Of a stretch of DNA of 64,000 nt, positions 42,494 to 53,025 are shown piece after piece. The notes under the pieces were generated by a model. The model searched no databases and was not told the DNA's origin. It saw nothing but the letters and a program-made list of their open reading frames with translations. The stretch is from an uncultured Candidatus Saccharibacteria bacterium. GTDB taxonomy: Bacteria > Patescibacteriota > Minisyncoccia > Phycocordibacterales > CAYSCM01. Position numbers and translations under genes: made by a program. How positions within the stretch are numbered: position 1 is the first letter of the stretch; every line of letters begins with the position of its first letter. The stretch is from the NCBI GenBank assembly GCA_964429815.1, contig CAYSCM010000001.1, positions 352,001-416,000 on the forward strand, given 5' to 3'.

Positions 42494-42566
42494 GCCGAGG
42501 TAGCTCAGTTGGTAGAGCATTTGTCTGAAGAACAAAGGGTCGCCGGTTCGATCCCGGCCCTCGGCA
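42494..42566 (+). tRNA. tRNA-Phe (anticodon GAA)
   Basis: Acceptor GCCGAGG/CCTCGGC, D-arm gctc-agttggta-gagc, anticodon stem tttgt/acaaa loop ctGAAga, T-arm gccgg-ttcgatc-ccggc, discriminator A. Confidence 0.9.
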
Positions 42567-42573
42567 CAAAATT
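42552..42573 (+). repeat. direct repeat copy 1 (tRNA-Phe 3' end, tcccggccctcggcacaaaatt)
   Basis: 22-bp segment spanning the tRNA-Phe T-stem 3' side, acceptor 3' strand, discriminator and 7 nt beyond; repeated identically at 42735-42756. Confidence 0.9.
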
Positions 42574-42734
42574 GAAATTGCCTGGACTGGCTCCAGGCAA
42601 TTTCAACTTCTGATGAGGGATCGAACCTGGAAGGGGTCGGGAAACGGGAGTTTCCCGTCGAGGAAAACAGCGAGCTTGCGAGCGTTAGAAACCGCGGGTT
42701 TCTAAAGAGCTGCGCAGCAGCTCAGGAGTGAGAT

Positions 42735-42756
42735 TCCCGGCCCTCGGCACAAAATT
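42735..42756 (+). repeat. direct repeat copy 2 (tRNA-Phe 3' end)
   Basis: Identical 22-mer 183 bp downstream of copy 1. Confidence 0.9.
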
Positions 42757-48621: not shown

Positions 48622-48640
48622 GTGCGCGGTAAGGGACTCG
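48622..48640 (-). repeat. direct repeat copy (tRNA-Val 3' end, gtgcgcggtaagggactcg on + strand)
   Basis: 19-bp identical copy of the tRNA-Val acceptor 3' side/discriminator region, 198 bp downstream (tRNA sense) of the tRNA and 1 nt from the NUDIX start codon. Confidence 0.9.
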
Positions 48641-48819
48641 GTCACGAATAATCTACTCGTCGTCGCTCGCAGATTTTCGCGACCCCGGCTCGGTATCAAA
48701 AGCTGCTGCTTTTGATATACCTGCGCCCTTCGAGTCCCTTATGGAAGCGACACTGGTCGCTTCCTCCCGCGCAACAACGAAATTAAAAAACGATGGCAGA
48801 AGCCATATTTTTTAATTTA

Positions 48820-49267: not shown

Positions 49268-49575
49268 TCGCTTCGCTCGGCCATGCCGCCGTCGCTCGTT
49301 CGGAAATGAAGGTGCACTTTCATTTCCCTCACTTCGCTAGACGATGGGGCCAAACACGGCGATTCTAGCATTTTCTCCTCCAAATGCTAGGATGACGTGC
49401 GTAGTTTATCAAACGGAGAGGTGGCTGAGTGGAGAAATCGCGAATAGCTTCGCGATTTCTCCGATCCGCGAAGCGGACGTGCCGATGTGAGCGAGCCTAC
49501 CGGCGAGCGAGAAGGCACGAGGTGGACGAACTTGTTCGACCCTCAGCTTCCATTTAGTATGGGCGAAGCCCATAT

Positions 49576-49662
49576 GGAGAGGTGGCTGAGTGGTCGAAAG
49601 CGGCGCCGTGCTAAGGCGTTAGGGGCGAAAGTCTCTCGTGGGTTCGAATCCCACCCTCTCCG
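49576..49662 (+). tRNA. tRNA-Ser (anticodon GCT)
   Basis: Acceptor GGAGAGG/CCTCTCC, D-loop GG, anticodon stem gcgcc/ggcgt loop gtGCTaa, long variable arm, T-arm gtggg-ttcgaat-cccac, discriminator G. Confidence 0.9.
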
Positions 49663-49664
49663 CA
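49645..49664 (+). repeat. attL-like repeat (3' end of tRNA-Ser GCT)
   Basis: cgaatcccaccctctccgca. Confidence 0.8.
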
Positions 49665-49715
49665 AATGTTGCCTATAGGGACAGAACAATCTCGATTTCC
49701 TGTTATACTTTCGTT

Positions 49716-50441
49716 ATGGCGAACCTTGAAGGAGGACCCAATTCGAACGTCGAAAAAGAAAAGAAAATCCGAGAAGCAGAACAAGAGCTTGATTCAATCG
49801 ATCTGAATCCGGACAAACTTCGCCCTCTCTCGCCTGATGAGATCCACAGTCTTCATAGTAACCTCGCCGATCTTCTCTACTCAGCAGAAACAACTAGAAC
49901 GTTAGCTGACTTACCGGACTCTCCCGAAATTCGAGGGATCAGTGGGGAAGAACAAACCCGAATTGCGATTCAGAAACTCCATGAACGCGGTCAAGAGCTT
50001 CTTAAGAAGACCATTGACGACGAACGACTCCGTGCCGACCTGACTGAAAAAATTAGAGAGTATCATCGCTCAAACTGGCGTGAGGCTTTTGCGAATGAAA
50101 TCACCCAAGGACGAACGCCTTTCGGCGATGCGAGTAACTCGATTATTGAATTTTACCGAACCAAGGGGATCAATATTGAGAATCCGACGGAAGAGGACAT
50201 TGATAAGTATTTTGAGCGAAAAGAATACGACGCTGCAGCATTTGGCCTTGAATTTAAACGCCGACGTCGAAAACAGTTTGCGGATATGGATAACCAGAAG
50301 TTTTCCGATTTTCAAAGTTTATTTTGGCGGATGTTTAGGGTGCCTGATGGGCATGGATGGTTCACAACCCTTATGAACGGCAAGGCGTTTGTGCAGAAGC
50401 TCGACGAAATCAACGAAGCTCTGAAGCATAAAACTCCATAG
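49716..50441 (+). CDS. hypothetical protein (island cargo)
   Basis: 241 aa from MANLEGG (ORF-track N-terminus overlaps the tRNA and was trimmed); acidic, helical, low GC. Confidence 0.5.
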   Translation: MANLEGGPNSNVEKEKKIREAEQELDSIDLNPDKLRPLSPDEIHSLHSNLADLLYSAETTRTLADLPDSPEIRGISGEEQTRIAIQKLHERGQELLKKTIDDERLRADLTEKIREYHRSNWREAFANEITQGRTPFGDASNSIIEFYRTKGINIENPTEEDIDKYFERKEYDAAAFGLEFKRRRRKQFADMDNQKFSDFQSLFWRMFRVPDGHGWFTTLMNGKAFVQKLDEINEALKHKTP

Positions 50442-50773
50442 GGGCATAGGAGACTGTGTTTATTTATGCCAACACGATACCACTTTTTCTTTTTCTAGCC
50501 TGTATGGCCGATTTCCACGCCATGCAAAAGACAGATCTCTTTGATACACTCTAATCGCTCCATGAAGATTGGATCGCGTAGCTGTATCCGGGTTCGAACA
50601 TCGTTCAGGCCTGCCCGCTCGGACCGGTAAATGTCCAGATAGGTCAATTTTGAAAAAGAGCCTTATGAAATGGGCCTCTTTTTCGTCTCCCAAATTCGCC
50701 AAAAAGGTTCGAATCCTAACCAGTCTCTGCTTCCTCACCTTGGTGATGTATATTTAGGCCATCATTTTAATCT

Positions 50774-51427
50774 ATGGTGCCAACCGAGATTATCCTGGCT
50801 AGTGTAAGTTCTCCTTTTGAAATTGGCGCACAAATCGCCGAGATTATTATTGCGGCAGGGACAATTGTGGGGCTCGGGTTTTCGATATGGTTTTCGCGAA
50901 GAACTCTGCAACGATCGGATTGGAATTCAATAATGACTACCGCTCCCAGCATTGCGATCGAGTGTCGTAGTGATGGATTTTGGTTGAATGATAGGCCAAC
51001 TGCCGGAGGTTCTTGGGGAGAGCCCACACGCCATCTCGAACCTTCAGGAAAGTACGTCACCTTCGCGTTGAGATTTAGAATCTCAAATCAGGGGAGGGGT
51101 CTAGCACTTGCTATTAAGCCCGAAGTTTCTTGTAAGGCGAAAGCTTGGGTGGGAGGGATTCAGAATTTCCCTGTTTGGATGGGCACCGACAATGAGGACA
51201 AATCAGATCTTGCTGTTGACATACAGGAAGAGGACTTCAAATGGCTCGAACTGATGAAAAATCCTTTGCATTTGGCGCTGAGCATTAGCTACAAAAATGA
51301 CCAGGGCAACATTGCTTGCACCTCTAGGTGGTCGGCTAACCTGCAACCGTTTACAGTTAATGGAACTCGTCTTGAAATATGCCGGGACCGAATCCAAGAG
51401 CCTAGTATGCAAATTACTTATAGTTGA
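50774..51427 (+). CDS. hypothetical membrane-anchored protein (island cargo)
   Basis: 217 aa with N-terminal TM, low GC. Confidence 0.5.
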   Translation: MVPTEIILASVSSPFEIGAQIAEIIIAAGTIVGLGFSIWFSRRTLQRSDWNSIMTTAPSIAIECRSDGFWLNDRPTAGGSWGEPTRHLEPSGKYVTFALRFRISNQGRGLALAIKPEVSCKAKAWVGGIQNFPVWMGTDNEDKSDLAVDIQEEDFKWLELMKNPLHLALSISYKNDQGNIACTSRWSANLQPFTVNGTRLEICRDRIQEPSMQITYS

Positions 51428-52107
51428 CTCGAAAAACTGTGAAATTCGAACTCAAAAAAATCAGAAGAAACACCCCAGATGACGAACTTCTTAGTGATCT
51501 GAAAACTACAGCAACAAAGTTAGGACAGCAATTTGTCACGAGGGCTCAGCAGGACCAATTTGGAAAATTTGATAGCTCGAACATGTCGAGGCGACTAGGG
51601 GGATGGGCAAAAGCTCATGAGCGTGCTGGTCTTAGGCTTGCACGTCATCAAAAGAGTCTGAAAGCTTCAGAAAACGAACTATTGCAAAATTTGGAAGAGG
51701 TTTGGACAAGGCTAGGACGACAACCGAATAGTCAGGATATGTTTGCTCCTATCTCACGCTTTGGCGTGAGTGCGTATAAACGCCACTTCGGCAGTTGGAT
51801 GAAAGCTCTCGAGAAGTTTGTTTCGATCGCAAATTTTGAGGGTGCTTTGACAAATGGATCGGATGAGGAGACTGTTGTTTCTGGGTCAAAGCGTAGGACA
51901 AAGCGAGAAGTCAATTGGAAGACGCGCTTTCTTGTAATGCGTCGGGATAATTTCAAATGCAAAAGTTGTGGACGGTCACCGGCTACGGACGCTGGAACTA
52001 TTCTCAATGTGGATCACATAAAGGCCTGGGCGAATGGGGGTGAAACTGTCCTAGACAATCTACAGACCCTATGTGCGGTCTGTAATCTGGGCAAAAGCAA
52101 TCTATAA
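51424..52107 (+). CDS. HNH endonuclease with N-terminal tandem helix-turn-helix-like repeats
   Basis: C-terminal HNH motif VMRRDNFKCKSCGRS...VDHIKAWANGGETVLDNLQTLCAVCN; two N-terminal repeats (...RRLGGWAKAHERAGL / ...KRHFGSWMKALEKF); 4-nt overlap with the upstream gene. Confidence 0.72.
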   Translation: MTRKTVKFELKKIRRNTPDDELLSDLKTTATKLGQQFVTRAQQDQFGKFDSSNMSRRLGGWAKAHERAGLRLARHQKSLKASENELLQNLEEVWTRLGRQPNSQDMFAPISRFGVSAYKRHFGSWMKALEKFVSIANFEGALTNGSDEETVVSGSKRRTKREVNWKTRFLVMRRDNFKCKSCGRSPATDAGTILNVDHIKAWANGGETVLDNLQTLCAVCNLGKSNL

Positions 52108-52247
52108 GGCATCCGGCGGCAACCCCATTCCTTCCTGTTTCAATATCCAGCGGATTTCCTCGCTCAATAATCACTCCTAGACAATCACACACGTTTTGGT
52201 TGTATGTGCTCAGAAGTACATTTGGCCATGCAAGGGAGTGTCTGCTA

Positions 52248-52517
52248 ATGAGCATGAAACCTACCCGCATAACTTTTGAAAATCCAAAATACGGCAAGGT
52301 TGAGTGGACTTTGCCCGAACACGTTGAAACAGCGCTCGCCGCCAATGCTTCATCAAGTGCTGAGATGGAGGAGGCGGTGAAATTCTTAGCACGAACAACA
52401 GCCAAAGTGTTCGGCACGATTGTCTATTGCTTCACTCTAGGCAAATTGCCTGACCTCGACGCTTTCCTTGGTCAATTCGCGGAAAAAGGCGAAGCGAAGC
52501 CACCACCCTCTCACTGA
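52248..52517 (+). CDS. hypothetical protein (island cargo)
   Basis: ~89 aa from MSMKPTRITF. Confidence 0.3.
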   Translation: MSMKPTRITFENPKYGKVEWTLPEHVETALAANASSSAEMEEAVKFLARTTAKVFGTIVYCFTLGKLPDLDAFLGQFAEKGEAKPPPSH

Positions 52518-52555
52518 GACTTTCAGGACGTACCCTAGCGGTACGTCCCTTCTTT

Positions 52556-52732
52556 TTAGTCAGACAGCTCCTTACCGTCTCGTCGGATTTCTTCCCGCAC
52601 CCACTCTCGAAGCCTCGCCTTTCTAACGGCTTCCTTTTCCAGTTTTCGCATCTCCTTCTCACTCTTGTCCGGCCAGTCAATTTTCACACCCTGGCGAGCG
52701 CAAACACGTTTGATAAGATGAAAGCGCTCCAT
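52556..52732 (-). CDS. hypothetical small basic protein (island cargo), start inside internal repeat B
   Basis: MERFHLIKRVCARQGVKIDWPDKSEKEMRKLEKEAVRKARLREWVREEIRRDGKELSD; a truncated homolog (MERLECIKEICLLHGVEIGHTG) starts at 50563 (-) inside repeat A. Confidence 0.35.
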   Translation of the reverse strand: MERFHLIKRVCARQGVKIDWPDKSEKEMRKLEKEAVRKARLREWVREEIRRDGKELSD

Positions 52733-52947
52733 GAACGATGGCTCGCGTAGCCATAGCCGGGTTCGAACGTCGTTCAGGCCTGCCCGCAACGGTTTGTAAG
52801 AATGCTCCGGTGGAGCATTCACGCAAAGCGTCGGATTTGTCGTGAGGTGGGATTCGAAAGGCGGAGCCCGACAAACGCAAAGCGTTTGTTTCGGGCGAGC
52901 CCGGGCAGGAGCCACTTTCCGCCGGAGGCGGATTAGTGAGCTGACGC

Positions 52948-52967
52948 CGAATCCCACCCTCTCCGCA
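52948..52967 (+). repeat. attR-like repeat (copy of tRNA-Ser GCT 3' end)
   Basis: Identical cgaatcccaccctctccgca 3.3 kb downstream. Confidence 0.8.
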
Positions 52968-53025
52968 GAAAGAAACTTCCGATTCGGACAGACCCGAGTA
53001 CTTCGGGAGTTAGTATAATGAATGT

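Follow-up and report, generated by a model that had tools for sequence, protein, structure and literature searches.

Small structured modules behind tRNA genes of a Candidatus Saccharibacteria bacterium: a candidate non-coding mini-element and an HNH-containing low-GC block at tRNA-Ser(GCT)

The tRNA-Ser(GCT) locus

We analysed a stretch of 64,000 nucleotides (positions 352,001 to 416,000 of contig CAYSCM010000001.1, hereafter the window) from an uncultured Candidatus Saccharibacteria bacterium, in which an intact tRNA-Ser(GCT) gene is followed by ~3.12 kb of low-GC DNA, referred to here as the cargo, and then by a second copy of the tRNA 3′ end (Table 1). An earlier note on this DNA had taken the two copies for the attachment (att) sites attL and attR of an island without an integrase. 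The distal copy belongs to a small structured module of a type found behind tRNA genes in many other loci, and we consider the module a candidate non-coding integrative mini-element, next to which the cargo with its HNH endonuclease gene would have arrived separately.

The repeat, CGAATCCCACCCTCTCCGCA, is exact over 20 nt (49645-49664 and 52948-52967) and not over the 21 bp first claimed for it, as the bases bordering the two copies disagree at either end (t/c upstream, a/g downstream). With up to three mismatches allowed it occurs twice in the whole window and no third time; 0.01 matches would be expected by chance, and none of 100 shuffles reached two. The GC content falls to 0.43-0.50 from ~49.6 to 52.6 kb against ~0.55-0.58 in the flanking DNA, in agreement with the lower GC described earlier between the copies. 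We regard it as very improbable that the match arose by chance, reflects a dispersed repeat or was created by the assembly. Breaks of Logan contigs from two runs of one study, inside or at the end of tRNA-Ser, would favour an artefact; against it stand the chance expectation, the contiguity of cargo, module and flank in an independent Logan contig (L086) and the recurrence of the same architecture in >100 loci from unrelated samples.

Three independently assembled Logan contigs of the same organism (L086, L167 and L168, from SRR12313480 and SRR12313482) end inside tRNA-Ser or exactly where it ends, at window positions ~49576, ~49605 and ~49662. Such breaks could reflect strain heterogeneity, or a tRNA sequence common to several organisms. 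Exact-protein look-ups with the DUF5652 protein, ORF A and ORF B (ORF, open reading frame) returned the same organism only, on contigs that break at tRNA-Ser, and look-ups with the YdeI-like and 357-aa neighbours gave no match.

The cargo consists of two tandem related units, X1 and X2, as had been proposed, both of which end in the same sequence. The internal repeat that forms these ends, previously put at ~62 bp, is present and extends over 79 nt with 82 % identity (50540-50618 and 52709-52787), its second copy being the right end of X2. Unit X2 opens with a degenerate tRNA 3′ end, followed by ORF B, the HNH gene and ORF D. This remnant is the sole T-loop-like motif within the cargo, and GGTTCGAATCCTAACC at 50706-50721 agrees at 14 of 16 positions, which upholds the degenerate third copy of the earlier note. 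Also present as described are the 58-aa minus-strand ORF (52556-52732) and its truncated 22-aa paralogue, which starts at 50563.

The HNH protein has two PF18780 units and a PF01844 domain, and in PADLOC this protein alone was matched, to type II restriction-enzyme models. Searches of Pfam, PHROGs and PADLOC gave no recombinase match for any of the five cargo ORFs, as the earlier note had supposed, and no integrase or resolvase family is among those listed (25 per scan) for the other ORFs of the window. Rfam detected no group I intron around the HNH gene.

Table 1. Features of the tRNA-Ser(GCT) locus and of the other modules in the window
Feature	Position	Strand	Evidence or remark
tRNA-Phe(GAA) mini-element, other sequence class	42552-42756	+	repeat and inverted-copy search
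tRNA-Val(GAC) mini-element	48622-48819	-	direct and inverted repeats; fold z = -5.9; R1 26.1 bits, E = 3e-7
5′-side counterparts: displaced 5′ ends of tRNA-Glu (49337-49351) and tRNA-Ser (49416-49433)	49337-49575		direct repeats
tRNA-Ser(GCT), intact	49576-49663	+	ARAGORN; Rfam tRNA model 57.2 bits
Proximal repeat copy, last 20 nt of tRNA-Ser including one trailing base	49645-49664	+	
Low-GC cargo, ~3.12 kb, starts exactly past the tRNA	49665-52787		GC profile; spacer homology
Cargo unit X1: ORF A and truncated ORF E copy; terminates in 79-nt repeat ...GGGTTCGAACATCGTTCAGGCCTGCCCGC	49665-50618		
ORF A, 241 aa, orphan	49716-50441	+	only homologue is itself
Truncated ORF E copy	50495-50647	-	22 aa
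Degenerate tRNA 3′-end remnant GGTTCGAATCCTAACCAGTCTCTGC, left edge of HNH-containing unit X2	50706-50730	+	direct-repeat search
ORF B, 217 aa, hydrophobic stretch near N-terminus (from translation)	50774-51427	+	no family match
HNH endonuclease, 222 aa, two HNH_repeat units and HNH domain	51439-52107	+	PF18780 1.3e-20; PF01844 1.5e-11
ORF D, 89 aa, orphan	52248-52517	+	
Terminator-like hairpin after ORF D	52526-52548		
ORF E, 58 aa, basic; 5′ region inside second 79-nt repeat copy	52556-52732	-	no homologue found
Mini-element spacer with hairpin 52789-52831	52788-52841	+	inverted repeat; alignment to relatives
Inverted tRNA 3′-strand copy, 5′ strand of stem P1	52842-52858	+	inverted repeat 13/13 nt; fold; P1 covariation
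Class-1a inner domain	52859-52947	+	fold; covariation in 55 homologues; covariance model R1
Distal repeat copy, C56 to discriminator plus 2 nt, 3′ strand of P1	52948-52967	+	

A conserved folded module behind tRNA genes

Thirteen T-arm bases of tRNA-Ser recur in inverted orientation at 52846-52858, 89 nt ahead of the distal copy. The inverted copy to which they belong is made up of GTGAGG, the complement of the acceptor, and TGGGATTCGAA, the complement of the T-stem and of the T-loop back to T54. In the predicted fold of 52780-52975 the inverted and direct copies pair in a long stem that closes two hairpins (z = -6.9). The inner domain holds a short helix P1b (GGC/GCC), a GGA/GA internal loop, hairpin P2, a second hairpin P3 (GGGCAGGAGCCAC...GUGAGCUG) and the junction ACGC. 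The distal copy is one of the two closing-stem strands of a ~125-nt three-way-junction module (52842-52967) that covariation supports, and as an integral part of that conserved module, which normally lies only 120-210 bp behind the tRNA, it is not a bare att scar. Foreign low-GC DNA inserted at the 3′ end of tRNA-Ser remains of the original proposal, whereas the 20-bp repeat as the attL and attR of a 3.3-kb insertion is not supported.

We identified two further mini-elements within the window, behind tRNA-Val(GAC) and tRNA-Phe(GAA), both of which are cargo-free, ~190-bp units without any ORF. The Val element comprises a terminator-like hairpin (48793-48806), an inverted T-arm copy (48729-48741), an inner domain and a distal 19-nt copy (48622-48640); its 19-nt repeats lie 198 bp apart and the inverted copy stands 88 nt before the distal one. 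No gaps are needed to align the Ser module with the Val module, and GGCG.AG...CGAGCC.GGG is common to both. The Phe element has a 22-nt repeat (42552-42573 and 42735-42756, 183 bp apart) with an inverted T-arm copy at 42617-42627, and belongs to another class (GGGGTCGGG...CCCGT.GAGGAA), which it shares with locus L022 and the first unit of locus L129. The distal copy of the Val element stops one base short of the ATG of a NUDIX gene.

Similar arrangements are frequent among relatives. We surveyed 80 Paceibacteria-type loci retrieved through the neighbouring gene for TsaD (≤60 % identity), in which 214 tRNAs lie far enough from a contig end, and found a copy of the tRNA's own 3′ end within 400 nt downstream of 41 of these (~19 %). 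In about half of the 41 an inverted T-arm copy can be recognised as well, which lies 56-113 nt ahead of the 3′-end copy (in one case 141 nt). The six common isoacceptors are all occupied, at 14-28 % each, different sequence classes occur at orthologous tRNAs of different species, and tandem arrays are present. A metagenome scan with a class-1a motif (GGCAGGAGCCACTT N8-38 TTAGTGAGCTGA) yielded at least 80 loci, and 38 metagenome modules each lie behind a tRNA with at least 12 nt of its 3′ end in common, 14 amino-acid types being represented. The repeat is mostly 19-21 nt long and runs from C56 to the discriminator, longer ones being found chiefly in tandem arrays; the module boundary falls within TTCGA/CGAAT of the T-loop in a class-specific manner, most often between ...GCTGACGC and C56. 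Five matches to the class-1a motif in viral contigs were rejected as chance, since they lie in GC-rich coding DNA without a tRNA.

An alignment of 55 modules shows strong covariation in P1, the 3-bp P1b and P2, with 88.9 % of cells paired compared with 76.8 % in shuffled and 27-40 % in slid alignments, and 189 double-change cells compared with 66. Covariance model R1, built from this alignment, scores the tRNA-Ser module at 96 bits (cmsearch). In 1.06 Mb of loci not chosen by motif it gave 28 further matches at E < 1e-3. Sub-threshold hairpins apart, no Rfam 15 family covers the modules of the window or of loci L012, L023 and L029 at E ≤ 1. A limited full-text search of the literature gave no description of such modules, the nearest papers dealing with group I introns that interrupt Patescibacteria tRNAs at position 35/36 and with the integration of phage CTX (PMC3089051). 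The mini-element is widespread and structured, and apparently undescribed as far as Rfam 15 and this limited search go.

Two loci from these surveys stand apart. At L119 (5130-5200) a class-1a unit follows what appears to be the 3′ part of a tRNA only, where ARAGORN calls no gene; this may be an intron-interrupted tRNA of the kind reported for Patescibacteria (bioRxiv 10.1101/2025.07.03.662931). At L010 (12297-15064) tRNA-Phe has a ~48-nt repeat that begins in the anticodon stem and reaches the 3′ end. It encloses 2.7 kb in which there are three ORFs (one of them TPR-like and repetitive, judged from its translation only), none of integrase size, and no module. We rejected L010 as the same type of element, as its repeat looks classical and the module is missing, and treat it as a different kind.

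The units appear, from their sequence, to follow the logic of integrative elements, in which an insertion brings a replacement gene end. This extends to a protein gene. At L123 (7560-7870) a class-1a core lies behind the 3′ end of fusA (elongation factor G), where the functional end VKDIETEE (stop) is followed by a terminator, a 10-nt complement of it, the core, a displaced and diverged end VKDIDEEA (stop) and the next unit; at L101 (11858-12040) a 44-nt fusA repeat surrounds a class-1a core. The unit after the displaced fusA end at L123 is a second, different one. At sites where the functional and distal copies differ, the inverted copy agrees with the functional tRNA copy in 26 cases and with the distal copy in 4. 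At tRNA-Phe, L029 holds one unit more than L023. Although the additional unit is evident, the pair was not accepted as an indel with a precise junction, because the downstream flanks have diverged.

We compared the two strands of the modules. In 32 of 35 modules the tRNA-sense strand gives the better fold (p = 8e-6). Across 72 units from all loci (11.4 kb), GC(GNA)GC mini-hairpins number 39 in sense and 4 in antisense, and GCGAAGC occurs 23 times in sense and never as its complement, the background being symmetrical. In the same GC-closed context the 39 GNA triloops compare with 5 GNRA tetraloops, while among predicted hairpins overall triloops are about as frequent as tetraloops. C-G-closed GNA triloops are classic hyper-stable DNA mini-hairpins, whereas structured RNAs favour GNRA tetraloops. 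On these observations we modestly favour single-stranded DNA over RNA as the molecule that folds.

The modules might alternatively be structured RNAs whose stem mimics the acceptor/T-arm minihelix of the tRNA, cut by RNase P and RNase Z and bound by tRNA-handling enzymes, so that the exact repeat would be functional mimicry upheld by selection or gene conversion. Structure on the tRNA-sense strand, strong covariation in all helices, a repeat that stops exactly at the discriminator, an inverted copy that tracks the functional tRNA, and a conserved hairpin loop (CAAACUGCUUUG) common to 3′ and 5′ modules would all be expected of such an RNA. It accounts poorly, however, for the patchy occupancy of each isoacceptor and the different classes at the same orthologous tRNA, for tandem arrays, and for the use of fusA 3′ ends as targets, where the old gene end is displaced and has diverged; a terminator-like hairpin often stands between tRNA and module, the GC-closed loops are predominantly of the GNA type, and there is the lack of an Rfam match. 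We consider a structured RNA unlikely.

Three further ideas about the folded molecule were discarded. A pseudoknot between a CUGC hairpin loop and GCAG is not supported, as the loop varies while GCAG is constant; priming of reverse transcription by the tRNA, with the complement as a primer-binding site, does not fit, as some repeats extend into a trailer that is untranscribed or unprocessed and the complement reaches no further than T54; and the conserved core, compared by eye with consensus sequences of the hammerhead, the K-turn and group II domain V, fits none of these.

The 5′ ends of tRNAs show a related pattern. Displaced 5′-end copies lie 84 and 161 nt upstream of the intact tRNA-Glu and tRNA-Ser genes of the window, with hairpins in between that include GCGAAGC. 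Such displacement was found at 17 of 345 surveyed tRNAs (18 copies), sometimes in tandem (L009), and the CAAACTGCTTTG hairpin, frequent with 5′-side copies, is also present in 3′ modules. By their sequence these units look like a counterpart that replaces the tRNA 5′ end.

Origin of the low-GC cargo

We examined whether the cargo and the module form one insertion by comparison with relatives lacking the cargo. The spacer 52788-52841, which follows ...GCCTGCCCGCA at the right end of the cargo, is homologous to the spacers of cargo-free tRNA-Ser units. In L094 and L108 the tRNA-Ser end ...CCGCA joins this spacer (ACCGATTTGTGAGAACAGTCC...GCAAAGCG...) directly, and in L088 a homologous spacer follows the tRNA-Ser-like 3′ end CTCCTCCGCA, again without cargo; homologous cargo-free units of relatives still hold the module. 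When the cargo is removed in silico the distance from tRNA end to module motif becomes 118 nt, compared with 71-133 nt in 37 of 38 other units, the remaining one being a tandem array with the motif at 268 nt. A 6-nt repeat, CCGCAA, borders the cargo (49660-49665 and 52784-52789), and the GC content of the cargo (0.44-0.49) differs from that of the module (0.63) and of the host. Because cargo-free relatives join the tRNA-Ser end to the spacer, we read 49665-52787 as having been inserted separately, at the final base of the tRNA, and this sequence comparison favours its entry into a pre-existing unit of tRNA plus mini-element, or into the free form of that unit.

The HNH family of the cargo has 1839 homologues at E ≤ 1e-10, mostly of ~225 aa. 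Relatives with 54-68 % identity lie downstream of tRNA-Ser in three unrelated contigs. The gene begins 53 nt past tRNA-Ser in L178 (2541-3362) and 139 nt past its 3′ end in L180 (7011-7917), and in L177 (7687-8678) the HNH cassette stands behind a displaced tRNA-Ser copy, outside the mini-element. A leader sequence is common to L177, where it follows the displaced copy, and L178, where it follows the tRNA-Ser gene itself; judged by this arrangement, it looks as if in L177 a mini-element had been inserted between tRNA-Ser and the HNH cassette. Altogether, the six HNH contexts examined outside the window comprise three after tRNA-Ser, one after tRNA-Arg (L170) and two without a nearby tRNA. The neighbours of the gene are often defence-like (AAA_15/21 ATPase, HEPN_AbiU2, Fic, SocA_Panacea), which suggests that these neighbourhoods are defence islands, and a defence role for the cargo HNH protein is as possible as a homing role. 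The earlier note had named the HNH nuclease as a potential mobiliser. We judge this plausible from the contexts: the HNH cassette would have spread by nuclease-stimulated recombination (intron-less homing) beside tRNA-Ser, and the cargo would have arrived in the same way and not through an integrase.

From the anatomy of the modules, their conservation and covariation, their distribution and their cargo-free relatives, we infer a very small integrative element that encodes nothing, uses a folded att site and depends on a recombinase acting in trans, accompanied at tRNA-Ser by a separate HNH-associated cargo, and we give this explanation about an even chance of being correct. Without cargo the element at tRNA-Ser would measure ~190 bp and consist of a replacement for the tRNA segment that runs from C56 to the discriminator, then a hairpin-forming spacer, the same segment in inverted orientation and the ~89-nt conserved two-hairpin domain; the distal repeat would be the old 3′ end of the host tRNA, pushed to the right. 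Within one strand of tRNA polarity, pairing of the inverted with the direct copy would recreate the target in duplex form where the three-way junction has its base. This folded structure would serve as the attachment site, at which a recombinase encoded elsewhere would exchange strands at the T-loop, much as host XerCD does for phage CTX, whose attP is a forked hairpin. What matches each target is the sequence of the stem and not the conserved core, which would explain how one family comes to occupy many tRNAs and even fusA. The 3.12-kb block, itself composed of two tandem units, would have come to sit between the tRNA and the spacer of the mini-element.

A single origin has to be weighed against this. 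The whole 3.3 kb could be one island, or two in tandem, with the 20-bp repeats as attL and attR after all, the module as an att-proximal arm, the integrase lost or provided in trans as for cis-mobilisable elements (CIMEs), and the ~190-bp units as cargo-less derivatives. The repeat does bound the block and the tRNA is intact. At L170 (1306-6883), 5.3 kb of genes including the same HNH family lie between tRNA-Arg and a class-1b module with its distal copy, and the array L129 (2226-4010), behind tRNA-Asp, consists of a class-4 unit, ~1.45 kb of AT-rich DNA with small orphan ORFs and a 5′-truncated class-1a module. In a circular form, moreover, cargo would spare the folded site only between the tRNA copy and the inverted copy, which is the place observed. 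Against a single island stand, however, the spacer, which is homologous to spacers that start at the tRNA-Ser end in three cargo-free units, the repeated termini and the short flanking repeat that belong to the cargo itself, and the GC content of the cargo, unlike that of module and host. The HNH cassette of L177 lies outside the mini-element, the cargo of L129 truncates the module, and only three of ~150 modules examined have >1 kb of cargo between tRNA and module. We hold the single island to be rather unlikely.

Several observations nevertheless weigh against a mini-element with a separate cargo. The gene-bearing interval of L170 is one; another is L129, where the AT-rich DNA starts right at a displaced tRNA copy, so that cargo lies within an array, and where the two displaced copies are closer to each other than to the functional tRNA end. 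The repeat flanking the cargo is short, at only 6 nt, and no tRNA lies near the HNH gene in two of the six contexts (L174 and L175/L176). Concerning the folded strand, stem G-U and A-C counts (41 and 34) do not differ significantly and leave single-strand structure and plain symmetry undistinguished, loop types are the single feature that separates single-stranded DNA (ssDNA) from RNA, and the sense strand is the one that would be transcribed with the tRNA, which leaves room for a role as RNA. Neither a free form (excised or circular) nor a recombinase was seen, nor did any near-identical strain show an empty site, the closest genomes available from a scan of genome contigs for an empty-site comparison having only 60 % TsaD identity.

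Relation to known integrative systems and significance

The integrative mobile element exploiting Xer (IMEX) of phage CTX-phi offers the closest parallel to the mini-element. Its attP1 and attP2 sites are inverted copies ~90 bp apart that form a forked hairpin of ~150 nt, and the phage has no recombinase of its own (PMC3089051). The mini-elements likewise hold opposed target-like copies, 89 nt apart for Ser and 88 nt for Val, that are foldable (z = -6.9 and -5.9), encode no recombinase, combine one functional target with inverted and direct non-functional copies, and occur in tandem arrays. They differ from the IMEX in that the target is the tRNA from T-loop to 3′ end, or fusA, and not dif, with no Xer binding sites recognised; in measuring 120-210 bp with no replication or virion genes; and in having a stem that varies by target around a constant two-hairpin core. 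An ssDNA stage and a recombinase would here have to be assumed, the sense-strand structure and the GNA triloops being indirect hints of the former.

Features are also shared with tRNA-associated islands and CIMEs. These include insertion at the T-loop or 3′ end with a replacement 3′ end supplied and a displaced partial tRNA on the far side, accretion in arrays, the existence of integrase-less members, and att-flanked DNA without recombination genes. In contrast to such islands the mini-element is non-coding and ~190 bp long, with an obligatory inverted target copy and a covarying core, and an integrase is absent from the units and from the families listed for the window. Tycheposons are further tRNA-targeting integrative elements, and a tRNA sublocation scheme for integrative islands was reportedly set out by Williams in 2002. 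A cognate integrase-bearing element was seen neither in the 80 genome loci nor in 80 metagenome loci or the viral contigs, in a non-exhaustive search, and the longer inserts of L010, L129 and L170 hold no integrase-sized ORF or integrase-domain gene (for L010 and L129 judged from ORF lists only). By analogy, the mini-element would work like a non-autonomous element of the CTX or CIME type, yet it departs from each of them in defining features, the target not being dif or an Xer site in the one case and no cognate integrase-bearing element having been found in the other.

Two other comparisons are less close. Integron cassettes and their attC sites (mentioned in PMC3089051) are likewise small, often promoter-less and arranged in arrays, with a site folded from a single strand, but the modules lack IntI, attI and the GTTRRRY core, and their repeat of 19-21 nt is specific to the target gene. 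A miniature inverted-repeat transposable element would have terminal inverted repeats of its own and a short target-site duplication of constant length, whereas here the inverted repeat is the target sequence and differs for each tRNA, and the direct repeat ends at the tRNA end with lengths from 12 to >40 nt.

Free-standing homing endonuclease genes are known from phage T4 (seg and mob). The cargo HNH gene resembles free-standing HNH homing genes in its homing-associated repeats and in the recurrence of its family by tRNA-Ser (the window, L177, L178 and L180). HNH genes also occur within tRNA introns of Patescibacteria (bioRxiv 10.1101/2025.07.03.662931); unlike these, the cargo gene lies outside any intron, and its family has defence-like neighbours elsewhere.

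More tentatively, we think it possible that the mini-element represents a new class, a non-coding programmable insertion element with a ~90-nt core that is read by a host enzyme and a target set by the stem only. Such a core could be retargeted to any tRNA T-loop, to the D-loop in the case of 5′ modules, or, as with fusA, to the 3′ end of a gene for a protein; the replacement gene end would make insertion harmless, and entry may be as folded ssDNA, for example after natural DNA uptake. If target choice is set by base pairing in this manner, the element would be of interest for targeted insertion.

Partial tRNA repeats are widely used to delimit islands, and as most of them in these genomes bound only ~190 bp of structured DNA, they would give rise to false positives. 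The "island" of the window would instead be a layered hot spot, in which a mini-element is joined by orphan genes and by an HNH cassette of a sort typical beside tRNA-Ser. The element holds no gene and matches no Rfam family. Should our reading be correct, it would follow a CTX-like insertion logic, with a folded target copy and a replacement gene end, redirectable to many targets, and about 1 in 5 tRNA genes of a large group of ultra-small bacteria would carry an unannotated, tiny parasitic or commensal element.

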